Source of the DNA: a virus
Taxonomy: Duplodnaviria; Heunggongvirae; Uroviricota; Caudoviricetes
DNA length: 64,000 nt
Virus record (IMG/VR): IMGVR_UViG_3300035696_000002
Direction: 5' to 3' (one strand)
How positions within the stretch are numbered: position 1 is the first letter of the stretch; each line of letters opens with the position of its first letter. Under the pieces are notes generated by a model, which saw only the letters and a program-made list of their open reading frames with translations, made no database searches and was not told the DNA's origin. This document shows, in pieces, positions 23,464 to 63,104 of the stretch. Both the position numbers and the translations under genes were made by a program.

Positions 23464-23553
23464 TCGAAGATGACGGAATGGTAGACGTGGCACCGCAAAA
23501 TGGTTCTGTAGCTATTAAGACGCTACGTGTGGGTTCGAGTCCCACTCTTCGTT
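23464..23553 (+). pseudogene. degenerate tRNA-Leu-like gene
   Basis: Leu-type D-arm, long V-arm and T-arm intact; anticodon stem mismatched, loop GCAAAAT lacks U33, 1:72 mismatch, no CCA. Confidence 0.6.
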
Positions 23554-27017: not shown

Positions 27018-27035
27018 AAATAATTTCTGCGGGTA

Positions 27036-27065
27036 TTGACAAAAAGCCCGACTTCCGGGTATCTT
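27036..27065 (+). promoter_or_regulatory. sigma70-like promoter of tRNA array 2
   Basis: TTGACA-18 nt-TATCTT. Confidence 0.7.
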
Positions 27066-27105
27066 ATATGAGTGGGCAGAAGCCCACCAAGGAATTCACC
27101 TTCAA

Positions 27106-27177
27106 ATGAACTTGATGCGACCATTTACGATGTTTCGACCGTGCATGCCTACCATGCGTCGGGAGACGATTCTGTAA
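27106..27177 (+). CDS. Met/Pro/Phe/Arg-rich leader peptide (23 aa, not in ORF track)
   Basis: MNLMRPFTMFRPCMPTMRRETIL; AAGGA 12 nt upstream; alternative in-frame ATG at 27115; 3' end lies in a long hairpin abutting tRNA-Pro. Confidence 0.65.
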   Translation: MNLMRPFTMFRPCMPTMRRETIL

Positions 27178-27208
27178 ATCGTCCGCATCCCGACGCTGCT
27201 AGGCGTAC

Positions 27209-27298
27209 CGGGATGTAGACGGGTAAATGGAAGCCCCCGTGCTTTGGATGCACGTACCCTTAGTGGTCTTGGGAGTTCGAGTCTCCCCATCCCGACCA
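27209..27298 (+). tRNA. atypical tRNA-Pro(TGG) with long variable arm
   Basis: CGGGATG/CATCCCG (C1:G72, A73), CGTGC-TTTGGAT-GCACG, 16-nt variable region, T-arm, CCA; extended TAGAC connector. Confidence 0.8.
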
Positions 27299-27322
27299 AA
27301 TTTTTTAGATTCAACGATTTAA

Positions 27323-27415
27323 CGGTGTGTAGAACGGTAACTTGGTAGCCGTCCAGCTTCGGATGCTGGTGCCCGAATAGTGGCCCTGTAGGTTCGAATC
27401 CTATCACGCCGACCA
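27323..27415 (+). tRNA. atypical tRNA-Pro(CGG) with long variable arm
   Basis: CGGTGTG/CACGCCG, CCAGC-TTCGGAT-GCTGG, 18-nt variable region, T-arm, CCA; TAGA connector. Confidence 0.8.
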
Positions 27416-27830
27416 TTGGAGTGTTCGCACGGAGAGTGGCCAACAGCCTGAACACGTGACCCGAAAAGCGGGGCAACCCGGATACGGGCATAAAGCTCTC
27501 CAACGAAATGATGCGGGGTTCGCCGGACGTACCCGGCGACGCAAGCGGGTGGTTACATCCGGCCCCCTAGCGAGTCAGTGGTGGAGCGGTCGCTCTTGGT
27601 CGCCGGGTGTCCGGCTGAGTGGCCGTGCTTAAGTGCCGAGGAGTGGTTGACCGACCGACACCGGATACCGCTCGACAGGTCGCCCGTAATTTGCTGAGGT
27701 AGATGCTTTGTGGTCATGCTGCCTGAGGAGCCCCGATTGCCATGGCAATCGGCAAGCACAAGGGGTGCCCCTGACAAAAGCGTCGGATGGAAGATCAGCC
27801 GCCATCGTGGCCATGAGGCTGGAAATTTTA
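27416..27830 (+). ncRNA. candidate large structured RNA (about 410 nt)
   Basis: No credible + strand ORF; multiple long-range stems; 20-bp perfect palindrome; bounded by tRNAs. Confidence 0.45.
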
Positions 27831-27831
27831 A

Positions 27832-27906
27832 CGGCGTGTAGCTCAGAGGAAGAGTTCTCGTCTGGGGGACGAGGGGTCGGGATTTCGAAATTCCCCACGC
27901 CGACCA
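27832..27906 (+). tRNA. tRNA-Pro(GGG)
   Basis: CGGCGTG/CACGCCG, CTCGT-CTGGGGG-ACGAG, CCA; T-arm deviant (GGGAT-TTCGAAA-TTCCC). Confidence 0.85.
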
Positions 27907-27910
27907 TTTT

Positions 27911-28129
27911 ATGGAGAACGCATTACAACTCGCGGACTGGTTCCACATTCGATGCTCAAGCAAAAAGAGTGGACATCCGGTGTTCGTGGCAGCCTTGAAG
28001 CAGTGGCAATGCACACGCTGCAAGTCAGCATGGAACTGTGATGAAGACCAGTTTCTCGTGTATCTCCAGCGTACTGTTTTTGAGGTTCGAAAAGATGAAG
28101 ATGATCCGCTGGTTCCGGGGCCTGTTTAG
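27911..28129 (+). CDS. small Cys-containing hypothetical protein
   Basis: 72 aa with CTRC...C, inside the tRNA array. Confidence 0.45.
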   Translation: MENALQLADWFHIRCSSKKSGHPVFVAALKQWQCTRCKSAWNCDEDQFLVYLQRTVFEVRKDEDDPLVPGPV

Positions 28130-28161
28130 CAAATATCGGCCCGTAGGGAAATTTTAAGTTT

Positions 28162-28238
28162 CAGGATGTAGCTCAGCTTGGTAGAGTCCTCGCCTCGGAT
28201 GCGAGTGGTCGCAGGTTCAAATCCTGCCATCCTGACCA
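28162..28238 (+). tRNA. tRNA-Pro(CGG), canonical
   Basis: CAGGATG/CATCCTG, CTCGC-CTCGGAT-GCGAG, CCA. Confidence 0.95.
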
Positions 28239-28249
28239 AGACCGAAGAA

Positions 28250-28309
28250 GGCGTATGAATGCTGGGGCGGTGTGGCCACACGTGAGTTCAATGCTCACTT
28301 CATACGCCA
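28250..28309 (+). ncRNA. mini tRNA-like RNA (acceptor-like stem plus T-arm only)
   Basis: GGCGTATGAA/TTCATACGCC 10 bp stacked on GTGAG-TTCAATG-CTCAC. Confidence 0.55.
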
Positions 28310-28323
28310 TCGGAATTTCGCAG

Positions 28324-28396
28324 GTGACTGTAGCTCAGGGGTAGAGCACCGGGGTTGGCCCGGAGTGCGGCGGTTCGAGTCCGTCCAGCCAGACCA
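28324..28396 (+). pseudogene. degenerate tRNA-Pro(TGG)-like gene with 5-nt anticodon loop
   Basis: D-arm, T-arm and CCA intact; CCGGG-GTTGG-CCCGG; two acceptor mismatches. Confidence 0.6.
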
Positions 28397-28507
28397 TGTG
28401 ACGAGGGGAACGATAGACCGGGCAGCAGGCATGCTCTCCGGGAACATCGTGAAATCCGTGATGCCTCCCTGCGATAGTTTTTTGATTTTGTGAGTATTAG
28501 ATAGATG

Positions 28508-28580
28508 TCACGCCGGACTCGGGGTAGACCAACGGCTCCCGACTCTGCTGTTTCCGTTGGGCAGGGAACCTCCGGCGTGA
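28508..28580 (+). ncRNA. three-way-junction RNA with complementary loops
   Basis: TCACGCCGGA/TCCGGCGTGA; two inner hairpins with loop segments CCAACGG and CCGTTGG. Confidence 0.6.
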
Positions 28581-28584
28581 TTTT

Positions 28585-28661
28585 GCCAGCGTAGCATAGT
28601 GGCCTAGTGCAGTCGCCTCATAAGCGAAAGATCGGTGGTTCGAATCCACCCGCTGGTACCA
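28585..28661 (+). tRNA. tRNA(CAT), elongator Met or Ile2
   Basis: GCCAGCG/CGCTGGT, GTCGC-CTCATAA-GCGAA, CCA. Confidence 0.9.
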
Positions 28662-28940
28662 ATTCTGTGATAGGATGGAACCGATGAAGCCGCTTCCAAT
28701 TGATCCGCCGAAACCGACAAAAAGGCACCCGAAATTTCCGTGGTAATCGAAGTTCCAGATTGTGCCAACTGTGGTGGGCCGTGCGAATGCGACGGCGAAG
28801 GTTTTAGAATTTGCTCCCGGTGTGGTTTCTTGGGAGATTGTTTGCACTGCGAATTCAACGAGGAGGATGAACGAATGGCTACTAACCCTAGCAAGACCGC
28901 ACATACCGCATAAGGTGTGAGCGGTCGGGGAGCGAAAGCC

Positions 28941-29231
28941 ATGTCTCATCCTACGTCGCGTGCCGAACGTCGGCACCAACGTGATCGTGTTATTGCCCGC
29001 CGCCGAAAGGTTGCGGAAACTGAGTGGGGCTACAACAACGGCGACTGGATCGCACGCGGTTGGGAACCATTCGTAAACTGGGGCGTATACGCCAAGTGGA
29101 ACGGTGGGTGCGGTTCATCCATGTGTCACGCGGCGAAGTACTTCAAGATCGCCCACAAACGCCGAGAGGCCCTGCACAATTCAGAATCGCAGGCGGAATT
29201 TCGGCGACGCAATAAAGTTGCATATCACTGA
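28941..29231 (+). CDS. basic hypothetical protein
   Basis: SD GGGGAG; SRAERRHQRDR...; 96 aa. Confidence 0.65.
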   Translation: MSHPTSRAERRHQRDRVIARRRKVAETEWGYNNGDWIARGWEPFVNWGVYAKWNGGCGSSMCHAAKYFKIAHKRREALHNSESQAEFRRRNKVAYH

Positions 29232-29354
29232 TCTTTCAGTATTATTTATAGGGCCTAAGATGGCCCGAGATATTGCAAGGCCGCAGGGTAGCAGCGTATC
29301 GGGAAGTCACAGCCAAGATTGCATCGGTTAAGTGCCCGCCCTGCGGAGTAAGTT

Positions 29355-29547
29355 TTTAGCCCAGTGGCCCGTGATTCAACTGGTTCTGTGTCGGAGTAAT
29401 GTGAGCCGACGCCATCCCCAGTATAAAAAACGCAGCAGCGGGGGGCAGGTACCGTAAGGCCTGCTGGAGGCATTCACGCAAAGGTGCTCGTCAACCTGTG
29501 ATCGCCGTATCGGGATACGCAGCATAACCGGAATGTGCTGGGCTAAA
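29355..29547 (+). ncRNA. unassigned multibranch RNA (about 190 nt)
   Basis: TTTAGCCCAGT/GCTGGGCTAAA 11-bp closing stem with several internal hairpins; flanked by AAGTTT spacers. Confidence 0.55.
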
Positions 29548-29558
29548 GTTTTCAATGA

Positions 29559-29635
<77 letters not shown>

Positions 29636-29640
29636 AGTTT

Positions 29641-29711
29641 GCCGGGGTGGGCTGTTCGCTTTGGCGGGCAGTTTATAAAGCTGTGGGGGTCAGCCCAGCG
29701 GTCACTCCGGC
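29641..29711 (+). ncRNA. tRNA-sized structured RNA without T-loop
   Basis: GCCGGGGTG/CACTCCGGC, GGGCTG/CAGCCC and two inner hairpins. Confidence 0.45.
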
Positions 29712-29718
29712 TACGATT

Positions 29719-29800
29719 TGCGGGCGAGTGGATGGGATACATAGACCATACAACGCTCATAACGTTGTGATTGCGGGTTCGACTCCCGCGTCCGCACCCA
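29719..29800 (+). tRNA. atypical tRNA(CAT) with C73 and 14-nt D-loop
   Basis: TGCGGGC/GTCCGCA, discriminator C, CCA; CAACG-CTCATAA-CGTTG; GCGGG-TTCGACT-CCCGC. Confidence 0.75.
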
Positions 29801-30076
29801 TTTCGGCCCTAGCTAGGTACGTGCCCGGAGCGGCAATTGATGCCAGCCTCAGGAGAATTACAGTCGTTTATCAATCGGCAGGGCCGAACGAGTGGTAGAT
29901 TCGTGTGAGACGGTGAGCTAGGCACCCTGTACGTTGGGGGTATACAGTGCCGGGTTGGGTTCGATTCCCAACTGCGATAGACGAGCAACGCGAGTCCAGT
30001 TAGGCGATCACGGGTAAAACTGCCTCGATAAGAGCGGAAGTCGGGTTACACAAACTCCCACTCGTGATCGGCCTAA

Positions 30077-30580
30077 CACCTAGATGTTGCCGCGTAATAG
30101 CGGCTGTGATGAGCAAGTCCCGACAAGGTCTCGACTTTGTGTCTGAGCGGAGTTGAGAAAAGCGGGAGCCGCGAAAGCGTTGAACTTGTGGAGTCACTTC
30201 TCAGACCGCTTTTTGAAAGATTGCAGCGGCAGGGTTGGCTAGTACGGAGAAGGCGTTCCCGCTCGCGGTCACACGCGATCAAAAGGTACGCGATACACCT
30301 TCTTCGCTCCCGTCATCCGGGAAAAGGCTAAGGCGTGGTGATTTCCCACGCACGTCGGTATGGAACGCCCTGTGGTAAGAGGAACCTTCTCCTCGGAAAA
30401 GGCAAGGATGATTCGCCGCTGCATATTTCTCGGGTCACTCCGAGTGGGGTGAGCGTCACCCAGTTTCCTGCATCTGTAAAATGTAGGTGGTGCGTCGCAA
30501 ACGAGCGGAAAACTATGAACTGCATTAGCTACAATCTCGACCTGTTTACCAGCCGCGAAAGCGGCCTGTAATACGTGTGT
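30077..30580 (+). ncRNA. candidate large ornate RNA (about 500 nt)
   Basis: Pseudoknot, long-range 8-9 bp stems, GAAA tetraloops, no credible ORF; directly upstream of tRNA-Phe. Confidence 0.55.
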
Positions 30581-30582
30581 TC

Positions 30583-30658
30583 GGGGGTGTAGCTGATGTG
30601 GTCTTAGCGGCGGCTTGAAAACCCGCAGATGGGAGTTCGATTCTCCCCGCCCCCACCA
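30583..30658 (+). tRNA. tRNA-Phe(GAA)
   Basis: GGGGGTG/CGCCCCC, GCGGC-TTGAAAA-CCCGC (one C:C mismatch), CCA. Confidence 0.88.
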
Positions 30659-30661
30659 TTT

Positions 30662-30737
30662 GGTGGGGTAGCTCCAATGGTAGAGCGGGGGCCTGAAAAG
30701 CCCCGCGTTGCGGGTTCGAGTCCCGCCCCCACCACCA
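30662..30737 (+). tRNA. tRNA-Phe(GAA)
   Basis: GGTGGGG/CCCCACC, GGGGC-CTGAAAA-GCCCC, CCA. Confidence 0.95.
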
Positions 30738-62636: not shown

Positions 62637-62818
62637 TTCTCCTGATCGCGGAATCGGGTCAGCAAGTCAACGAGGGTTTCCTCGGTGAGGTGGATCGGAC
62701 GGTACTGGGTGTCCGGGCTGAGCGTCTTGCGGACGAACGCAAGGGCGGCTTGCCGGGTGTGCTCCAACGCCGGAGGGTAGTCCTGCGTGTGAGTCCAGAA
62801 CTCCGAGGGATTAGGCAC
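62630..62818 (-). CDS. hypothetical protein
   Basis: Probable GTG start at 62818. Confidence 0.5.
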   Translation of the reverse strand: MPNPSEFWTHTQDYPPALEHTRQAALAFVRKTLSPDTQYRPIHLTEETLVDLLTRFRDQEKW

Positions 62819-63104
62819 GGGCGGCTCTCCGCTTCGTGATCTTGGCCGGAGCCTTGCGGCTCTCAAACCGGGCCTTGGTGTTGACAACCTTGACCTTGGC
62901 CGGGGTGGTCAGGATGGGGGTAGCGAACGGCTTCAGTTCAAACCAGAAGCCAGCGAACCCGACCTCGGATTTGCCGTTGATATCGTACTGGCGGTCTTCA
63001 TCGAAGACGGCAGTTTTGGTGACCTTGGTGATCGTGGCAGTCTCTTCGGACGTGACCCCGGCACCGTGGACGAGCAGGCGTACTTTCTGACCCTTCTTGA
63101 ACAT
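62811..63104 (-). CDS. SH3-like basic protein, first gene of the minus-strand array
   Basis: SD AGGAGA; FKKGQKV...ATITKVTK. Confidence 0.7.
   Translation of the reverse strand: MFKKGQKVRLLVHGAGVTSEETATITKVTKTAVFDEDRQYDINGKSEVGFAGFWFELKPFATPILTTPAKVKVVNTKARFESRKAPAKITKRRAARA

Follow-up and report, generated by a model that had tools for sequence, protein, structure and literature searches.

Can translation of a mini-ORF decide whether the tRNA encoded directly behind it is able to form, if no terminator stands between the two? This question is raised by a short leader preceding one of the tRNA arrays of a 463-kb phage (Caudoviricetes). The window, i.e., the whole stretch of 64,000 nucleotides that was analysed, corresponds to bases 318836-382835 of the 463,033-bp virus record IMGVR_UViG_3300035696_000002. 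Throughout the whole genome, 68 tRNA genes and a tmRNA are reported by ARAGORN, grouped in six arrays by amino acid, and the array downstream of the studied leader extends over positions 27209-30737 of the window with Pro x4, Gln, Met x3, and Phe x2 (in the order tRNA-Pro UGG, CGG, GGG, CGG; Gln; three CAU; two GAA). Upstream of five of the six arrays, a related promoter (with conserved spacer and -10 of the (C/G)RGTAT type) is combined with a mini-ORF, which mostly starts with MN and draws its codons from the amino acids of its own array:

Ser-rich leader, ahead of the Ser array
K/H/N/R/Q/W-rich leader, ahead of the Trp/His/Arg/Asn/Gln/Cys/Lys array
A/V/G/E/D/C-rich leader, ahead of the Val/Gly/Ala/Asp/Cys/Glu array
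Leu/Tyr-rich leader, ahead of the Tyr/Leu array
Pro/Met/Phe leader, ahead of the Pro/Met/Phe array

The actual pairing of leaders with arrays gives the highest match among 120 permutations, and the correspondence between the codons of the Pro/Met/Phe leader and the tRNAs behind it, pointed out in an earlier note on this DNA, belongs to a genome-wide set of codon-matched leaders; for the Lys/Ile/Thr/Gln array, no matching leader was found within ~2 kb upstream. Canonical hairpin-plus-T-tract terminators are located behind the other four leaders. In folds computed with a blocked ribosome footprint, the Ser leader passes from terminator to antiterminator exactly with the ribosome on Ser codons 5-10, and the Val/Gly/Ala leader holds the antiterminator by default until translation is complete. 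Since these two leaders switch classically, the genome uses classical logic elsewhere and the Pro/Met/Phe cassette is the odd one: in contrast to the four other arrays, it is devoid of a terminator and fused to the tRNA.

Some peculiarities of the tRNA complement deserve mention in their own right. The Ser leader (genome positions 62722-62866, outside the window) contains one Leu codon only, TTA, and the sole tRNA-Leu(UAA) of the genome is located in the Ser array, not in the Leu array, representing a leader/array match at the codon level. Within the Leu array (window 23464-23553), a 90-nt type-II-like tRNA, called as Phe(AAA) by ARAGORN, yields no match to the Rfam tRNA model at gathering score and is either degenerate or of odd identity. 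Three tRNAs with CUA anticodons (amber-reading) are found together with the tmRNA gene at genome positions 238747-243196, outside the window, and reassignment or suppression of TAG in the late phase of infection is therefore possible. Nearly all of the 68 tRNAs are preceded by ..GTTT(T/C) and followed by CCA and A(G/A)TTT or TTTT, and this shared flank looks like a generic spacer or processing motif.

The elements of the Pro/Met/Phe cassette are arranged in the window as follows:

27036-27065, plus strand: promoter, TTGACA (27036-41), 18-nt spacer, TATCTT (27060-65)
27072-27102, plus strand: 5′ UTR with two small hairpins, GTGGGC/GCCCAC (27072-87) and AAGG/CCTT (27089-102), the latter just before the ATG
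27106-27177, plus strand: leader ORF of 23 codons, MNLMRPFTMFRPCMPTMRRETIL, with the core M4 R5 P6 .. M9 F10 R11 P12 C13 .. P15
27139-27146, plus strand: segment A, CCGTGCAT, codons 12-14; its partner is 27154-61
27147-27164, plus strand: segment B, 5′ side of the long hairpin (GCCTA of the outer stem, 27147-51; core GCGTCGGGA, 27156-64), overlapping the partner of A
27165-27183, plus strand: apical hairpin whose loop contains the stop codon TAA (27175-77)
27180-27204, plus strand: segment C, forming the 3′ side of the long hairpin or, alternatively, with its part 27180-92, a helix with the 5′ end of the tRNA
27209-27221, plus strand: segment D, nt 1-13 of tRNA-Pro(UGG), i.e., the acceptor 5′ strand, the connector, and the start of the D-arm
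27209-27298, plus strand: tRNA-Pro(UGG) with long variable arm, 90 nt, encoded CCA (ARAGORN)
27323-27415, plus strand: tRNA-Pro(CGG), the second long one, 93 nt (ARAGORN)

The promoter with TTGACA and TATCTT separated by 18 nt, as proposed in the earlier note, is indeed present. A scan for sigma-70-like consensus alone works at chance level in this region (5 sites found versus 5.2 expected), and the credibility of the leader promoter derives solely from its homology to those preceding four other arrays of the genome and the same leader in a related contig (L019); its -10 element lies inside GGGTATCTT, a variant of the (C/G)RGTAT element of the phage. The layout of the 5′ UTR is reproduced in three relatives (L019, L013, and L015). 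In the window (27089-27102) as well as in these three, a Shine-Dalgarno-like AAGG or GAGG pairs with CCTT in the hairpin adjoining CAA-ATG. The Shine-Dalgarno sequence of the leader is weak, and in other lineages the leader ATG is placed 6-9 nt past the -10 element, which suggests leaderless mRNAs.

The ORF itself contains the Pro codons CCA (27121), CCG (27139), and CCT (27148), five ATG (27106, 27115, 27130, 27145, and 27154), and two TTT (27124 and 27133), so that P, M, or F occupy 9 of codons 4-17, exactly as had been counted before; the share of P+M+F (9/22) is reached by only 8 of 2576 random small ATG ORFs (0.3%). Nowhere else in the genome is the leader repeated. Its reading frame is preserved in 12 distinct sequences, representing about ten lineages, where putative translation follows the pattern M-x-x-M-R-P-(FT or TP)-M-F-R-P-C-x-P, all indels are whole codons (two lineages carry one extra codon), and two leaders (L007 and L009) differ by synonymous swaps. 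The stop codon may be TAA, TAG, or TGA, and it resides at the hairpin tip in 12/12 sequences. In one relative (L013), it is TAG. This in-frame conservation with varying stop at a fixed place argues for a real ORF, and what is found between the promoter and the genes is, as in attenuators, a maintained short ORF enriched with relevant codons. The codons CCA, CCG, and CCT are conserved among relatives; CGA, CCA, TTT, CGA, CCG, and TGC are invariant, though the search pattern left third positions free, and CGA, TTT, CCA, and CCT belong to the minor codons of the genome. That the nucleotides of codons 5-13 do not vary might be due to RNA pairing and not to the sensing of codons. Two of the Met codons counted earlier, Met14 and Met17, lack conservation as Met and co-vary as a base pair of the hairpin formed by segment A with its partner in B (A:B).

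The folding of the leader RNA was examined next to its coding content. The long hairpin described in the earlier note is present: GCGTCGGGA (27156-64) pairs with TCCCGACGC (27188-96), flanked by an inner stem (27165-71/27177-83) and an outer one (27147-51/27200-04), and the whole hairpin (27147-27204) is the minimum-energy fold (z = -4.93, 0 of 200 shuffles as stable). The absence of a U-tract terminator was likewise reproduced, since no hairpin followed by a U-tract occurs within 27066-27208. The idea of a single long hairpin holds in that the hairpin exists, but it missed a competing upstream hairpin A:B (27139-46 with 27154-61), found by RNAalifold. Two mutually exclusive folds may thus be drawn: fold I, composed of hairpin A:B and a helix between segments C and D (C:D), and fold II, composed of the long hairpin B:C with the 5′ strand of the tRNA left free. 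In the alignment of 12 sequences, both are maintained. For B:C, 93% of cells are paired versus 35-51% in slid controls, with three pairs changed on both sides, and for A:B together with C:D, 95% of cells are paired versus 26-55%, again with double-sided changes. Pairing of segment A reaches 98% of cells, and the column pair 41:52 appears as C-G, U-A, A-U, and U-G by means of non-synonymous changes at codons 14 and 17. The apical parts are wholly different between lineages, yet always hairpin-forming. The folds are nearly iso-energetic in this genome (-44.8 versus -44.0 kcal/mol), and in the window as in several relatives they differ by no more than 1-2 kcal/mol; A:B, weakened in the window by a C-C mismatch, is the earliest helix as the transcript lengthens. 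Mutually exclusive helices overlapping the ORF are therefore at hand, and we regard it as very probable that the leader is a two-state switch read by the ribosome. An intrinsic terminator as the final helix is missing (none in 27066-27208, and the T-run after the tRNA is the generic flank); because this defining element was looked for and is absent, the cassette falls outside the canonical attenuator family.

The place of the terminator in fold I is taken by helix C:D. The anti-tRNA pairing of 12 out of 13 nucleotides, noticed earlier, was recovered as 11 Watson-Crick pairs, one G-U, and one mismatch between 27180-92 and nt 1-13 of the tRNA (27209-21). It amounts to -21.4 kcal/mol in this genome, a value equalled by 1 of 2000 strand shuffles and by 46 of 2000 if the 7-nt core is kept fixed. 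The earlier note had made its proposal depend on conservation of this complementarity in relatives, and conserved it is, co-varying with the tRNA. Among the relatives, one more lineage (L007/L009) has the leader fused to the tRNA. C:D comprises 12-13 bp in both fused lineages and is built from different bases: the cognate pairs yield -21.4 (window) and -18.0 (L007) kcal/mol, and the cross-pairs between the two only -13.8 and -12.1. Lengthening of C:D beyond its core is associated with p of about 0.02 in each fused lineage. Because the extension over tRNA nt 8-13 differs between the two, C:D is not a simple duplication of the tRNA 3′ end. A separate complementarity of 8 bp exists in the window between leader codons 6-8 (27121-27128) and the D-loop of tRNA-Pro(UGG) (27224-27231); it comprises 6-8 bp from different bases in several relatives (L007, L013, L015, and L019), four lineages break the pattern, and it may represent either a third contact or chance.

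The tRNA captured in fold I is itself unusual. The gene at 27209-27298 has a 4-nt connector and a variable arm of 13-16 nt. It gives no match to Rfam RF00005 at gathering score or at E <= 10, though its cloverleaf is well attested by the anticodon loop, the T loop, and CCA as well as by acceptor, anticodon, and T stems co-varying in 9 lineages. Its 3′ acceptor strand (27288-94) competes for segment D. Two long tRNA-Pro genes of this kind, UGG then CGG (4-nt connector, variable arm of 13-18 nt, co-varying stems, neither recognised by the Rfam tRNA model), head the array in nearly all relatives, as compared for L004, L007, L013, L015, L019, L020, L027, L029, and L030; the second one is not reported by ARAGORN in L004/L005 or L029. 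Most of these relatives also possess canonical Pro UGG, CGG, and GGG copies, followed by Met and Phe, so the long tRNA-Pro may have a special role. The T6 run following tRNA-Pro(UGG) was considered as a dedicated terminator and rejected, because a T-rich flank follows CCA in nearly all 68 tRNAs.

Relatives of the locus were reached only via the DNA polymerase encoded 2 kb downstream, which leads to syntenic arrays at ~59% protein identity, and via patterns of the leader core (an 18-mer and a codon-degenerate version), 5 of 18 metagenome matches being false. Searches of viral contigs with three flanking proteins revealed no related loci; the upstream 326-aa protein found no homologues but itself, and other contigs carrying it show 100% identity across this region, which makes them uninformative. 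A search with a 28-mer of the tRNA was likewise without a match. The retrieved loci fall into two architectures. In the fused one (this genome and L007/L009), D is the tRNA itself, and in the spacer one (eight sequences), a module of ~70-110 nt is placed between leader and tRNA, whose first part (D) copies the tRNA 5′ end and which includes a complementary strand E. Judged from the alignments, this is one homologous leader in two architectures, either fused or with an inserted D-E module. The earlier description of a leader abutting a tRNA without terminator thus stands for the window but not for most relatives, which carry the extra hairpin module, terminator-like in four. There, TTTGTG follows D:E directly; the other four of the eight spacer lineages do not have it. 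Strand E can also pair with the 5′ strand of the real tRNA in 8/8 spacer lineages (7-8 bp, -11 to -16 kcal/mol), and therefore the A:B-containing fold ends with a helix holding the tRNA 5′ end in every lineage. Apart from this parity, no output feature is shared by all lineages.

Two variants among the relatives were noted besides. In L032 (minus strand, ~3930 to 3140), the leader, the hairpin, and CGGGGC are kept, an inserted ORF for a zinc-ribbon-like protein precedes the tRNAs, and a canonical Pro(UGG) takes the first position in place of the long one. A hairpin CCCG..TGC-(TTCG or GAAA)-GCA..CGGG, with swapped tetraloop, occurs at differing places between tRNAs (in the spacer before tRNA 1 in L029 and L030; at 3337-3375 in L007).

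How could the ribosome choose between the folds? Equilibrium folds of the leader with the whole tRNA were computed with a blocked ribosome footprint assumed to reach 12 nt beyond the A site. In this genome, a ribosome at codons 4-10 leads to the long hairpin and the cloverleaf, a ribosome at codons 12-23 to the anti-tRNA helix with the acceptor stem absent, and a ribosome at the stop codon again to the cloverleaf. For L007, the cloverleaf is predicted with codons 4 and 10-14 and the anti-tRNA helix with codons 6-9 and 15-24. The direction suggested in the earlier note, i.e., that the tRNA remains foldable upon stalling and the anti-tRNA strand is released once the ribosome runs on, agrees with these equilibrium blocked-footprint folds; the stall windows are ill-defined, the anti-tRNA helix being already favoured in this genome with the ribosome at P12 or P15, and depend on the assumed footprint and on equilibrium. 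Segments A, B, C, and D map onto segments 1, 2, 3, and 4 of the classical scheme, with the conserved codons on or before 1 and the stop after 2.

As the start of the first tRNA is gripped in one of the two folds, the speed of the ribosome on Pro/Met/Phe codons probably decides whether this tRNA can form. With even confidence for and against, we propose, as the likeliest explanation, a tRNA-sequestration switch, that is, a leader of the trp/his-attenuator kind whose last helix would use the first tRNA instead of a terminator. With a ribosome stalled at the conserved Met/Phe/Arg/Pro codons in or ahead of A, hairpin A:B would be prevented, so B:C would form and the tRNA could fold and be processed. 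If the leader is untranslated or the ribosome has run on over B to the stop, C would be free to capture the 5′ strand of the tRNA, so that neither cloverleaf formation nor RNase P cleavage could occur and C-rich RNA might become accessible to Rho or nucleases; fold I is predicted to leave the C-rich 3′ strand of the tRNA unpaired. As a net result, slow decoding of Pro/Met/Phe codons would give more product from the unit starting with tRNA-Pro. Both the output of the switch and its sign are what we infer from modelled folds, and in the four relatives with TTTGTG after D:E, fold II would be OFF, i.e., the polarity would be opposite.

The reach of such control along the array is another matter, as it is not obvious how the capture of a single tRNA would control the more distal Met/Phe tRNAs. 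A promoter-like site occurs inside the array at window positions 29219-29245 (TTGCAT, then CAGTATTAT), directly after a 96-aa ORF (28941-29231), and the last two tRNA-Met with both tRNA-Phe may constitute a separate transcription unit having no matching leader. Therefore, the leader may govern only Pro x4, Gln, and the first Met: the link between leader and array seen earlier is upheld by the codon match, but weakened by this site as far as the distal Met/Phe tRNAs are concerned. The broader view, in which genome-wide feedback on codon supply includes a Pro/Met/Phe gate without terminator, with the first tRNA as the last arm of the switch, tRNA folding controlled by translation, and Rho or decay perhaps triggered for the rest of the unit, is offered tentatively, as possible rather than probable.

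Several other explanations have to be weighed against tRNA sequestration. The leader could descend from a classical attenuator, in which C:D served as antiterminator and D:E with a U-tract as terminator, and which lost the latter when a deletion between two CGGGG repeats fused it to the tRNA; the switch would then be vestigial, the array constitutively read through, and the anti-tRNA pairing transient. Direct succession of D:E and TTTGTG in four relatives, the canonical terminators at the other arrays of the genome, the weakening of A:B in the window by its C-C mismatch, and the resemblance of D and the following bases to the tRNA 5′ end, by which repeats for the deletion exist, all speak in favour of such loss. 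A decaying relic, however, is not expected to lengthen C:D to 12-13 bp by different bases (p of about 0.02 each) in two divergent lineages sharing the fused form, nor does decay fit with ORF, hairpin, and stop position being intact, and half of the spacer lineages have no U-tract adjoining D:E; we thus consider this history rather unlikely. Still less probable is that the tRNA acts as terminator stem with classical polarity. Fold II would close the acceptor stem before T6 (27302-07), stopping or pausing RNA polymerase after the first tRNA, and fold I, with the ribosome stalled over B (P15 and after), would prevent the stop and let transcription enter the array. The polarity would be the same as in the Ser and Val/Gly/Ala leaders and the terminator-like relatives, blocking of codons 15-23 does give C:D, and no tRNA of the genome is followed by a T-run longer than T6; yet the acceptor stem ends 7 nt before this run and closes a multi-branch loop, which is not a canonical terminator, CCA with subsequent A(G/A)TTT is the generic flank of nearly all 68 tRNAs, and only TTT is found at this place in the other fused lineage.

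Two further possibilities dispense with the ribosome or with function altogether. If the hairpins were processing or stability signals of the tRNA precursor (for RNase III, E, or P) and the ORF incidental, invariance of codons 5-13 even at third positions, with parts of them in helices, and the weak Shine-Dalgarno would find a ready explanation. This purely RNA-level element is nonetheless highly improbable, given that the frame is open in 12/12 sequences despite indels, which are whole codons, that the stop changes its identity and not its position, and that leaders match arrays genome-wide, with only 0.3% of random small ORFs as rich in P/M/F. Barely credible, finally, is the reduction of the cassette to functionless leftovers of partial tRNA duplications, where C would resemble the 3′ acceptor strand of the tRNA and so trivially complement its 5′ strand. 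The 9-mer CATCCCGAC occurs both at 27186-94 and at the tRNA 3′ end, with 13 matches over 16 positions in the window (by eye, from the alignment), and D and E of the relatives look like tRNA acceptor strands, but nothing in the 3′ half of the tRNA corresponds to the C:D extension over nt 8-13, which in L007 bears no similarity to that half, compensatory changes keep both folds, and no tRNA covariance-model match was obtained in 27018-27208. The 3′ part of the leader was also considered as a tRNA pseudogene and dismissed, there being no covariance-model match and the resemblance to the tRNA 3′ end being limited to the window.

Leader-peptide control of tRNA genes would enable a phage to adjust its tRNA supply to the actual speed of decoding, e.g., upon loss of host tRNAs or mismatch in codon usage. 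If tRNA sequestration is true, a structural RNA gene would serve as one arm of a riboregulator, and tRNA folding, not transcription alone, would become the regulated step. The natural variants (tRNA-fused, with inserted hairpin, with terminator-like hairpin) are ready-made comparisons, and the compact design may be reusable as a codon-specific sensor of translation speed.

A full-text literature search found no published leader-peptide control of tRNA genes, and the terminator-less, tRNA-fused form of attenuator, together with its homology to versions with an inserted hairpin, is new here. Transcription attenuators with leader peptides are known for amino-acid operons and pheST (trpL, hisL, pheL, and pheM). 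The cassette has in common with them a promoter-proximal mini-ORF rich in relevant codons, exclusive overlapping helices read by ribosome position, the stop codon inside the switch, and a default fold adopted without translation. It differs in having phage tRNAs as targets instead of enzymes or synthetases, in a multivalent leader (Pro, Met, and Phe), and in that, within the window, the terminator hairpin with U-tract is lacking and the final helix is formed with the 13 nt at the 5′ end of the first tRNA. Of this class, the pheL leader-peptide attenuator (PMC3082878) may be named. T-box riboswitches similarly represent cis-acting RNA coupling the state of the tRNA pool to translation-related genes via alternative helices, but they bind uncharged tRNA in trans and need no ORF, and neither a T-box nor another Rfam family was matched in 27018-27208, even at E <= 10. 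Pro codons are sensed by the leaders mgtP and mgtL of Salmonella mgtCBR and mgtA (PMC3641672), which resemble the cassette in that short ORFs with Pro codons are used, translation selects between stem-loops in a long leader, and the outcome is not due to a U-tract terminator alone; there, genes for virulence and a transport protein respond to Pro-tRNA charging in a bacterium, whereas here a tRNA array is the target and the helix captures a strand of the tRNA.
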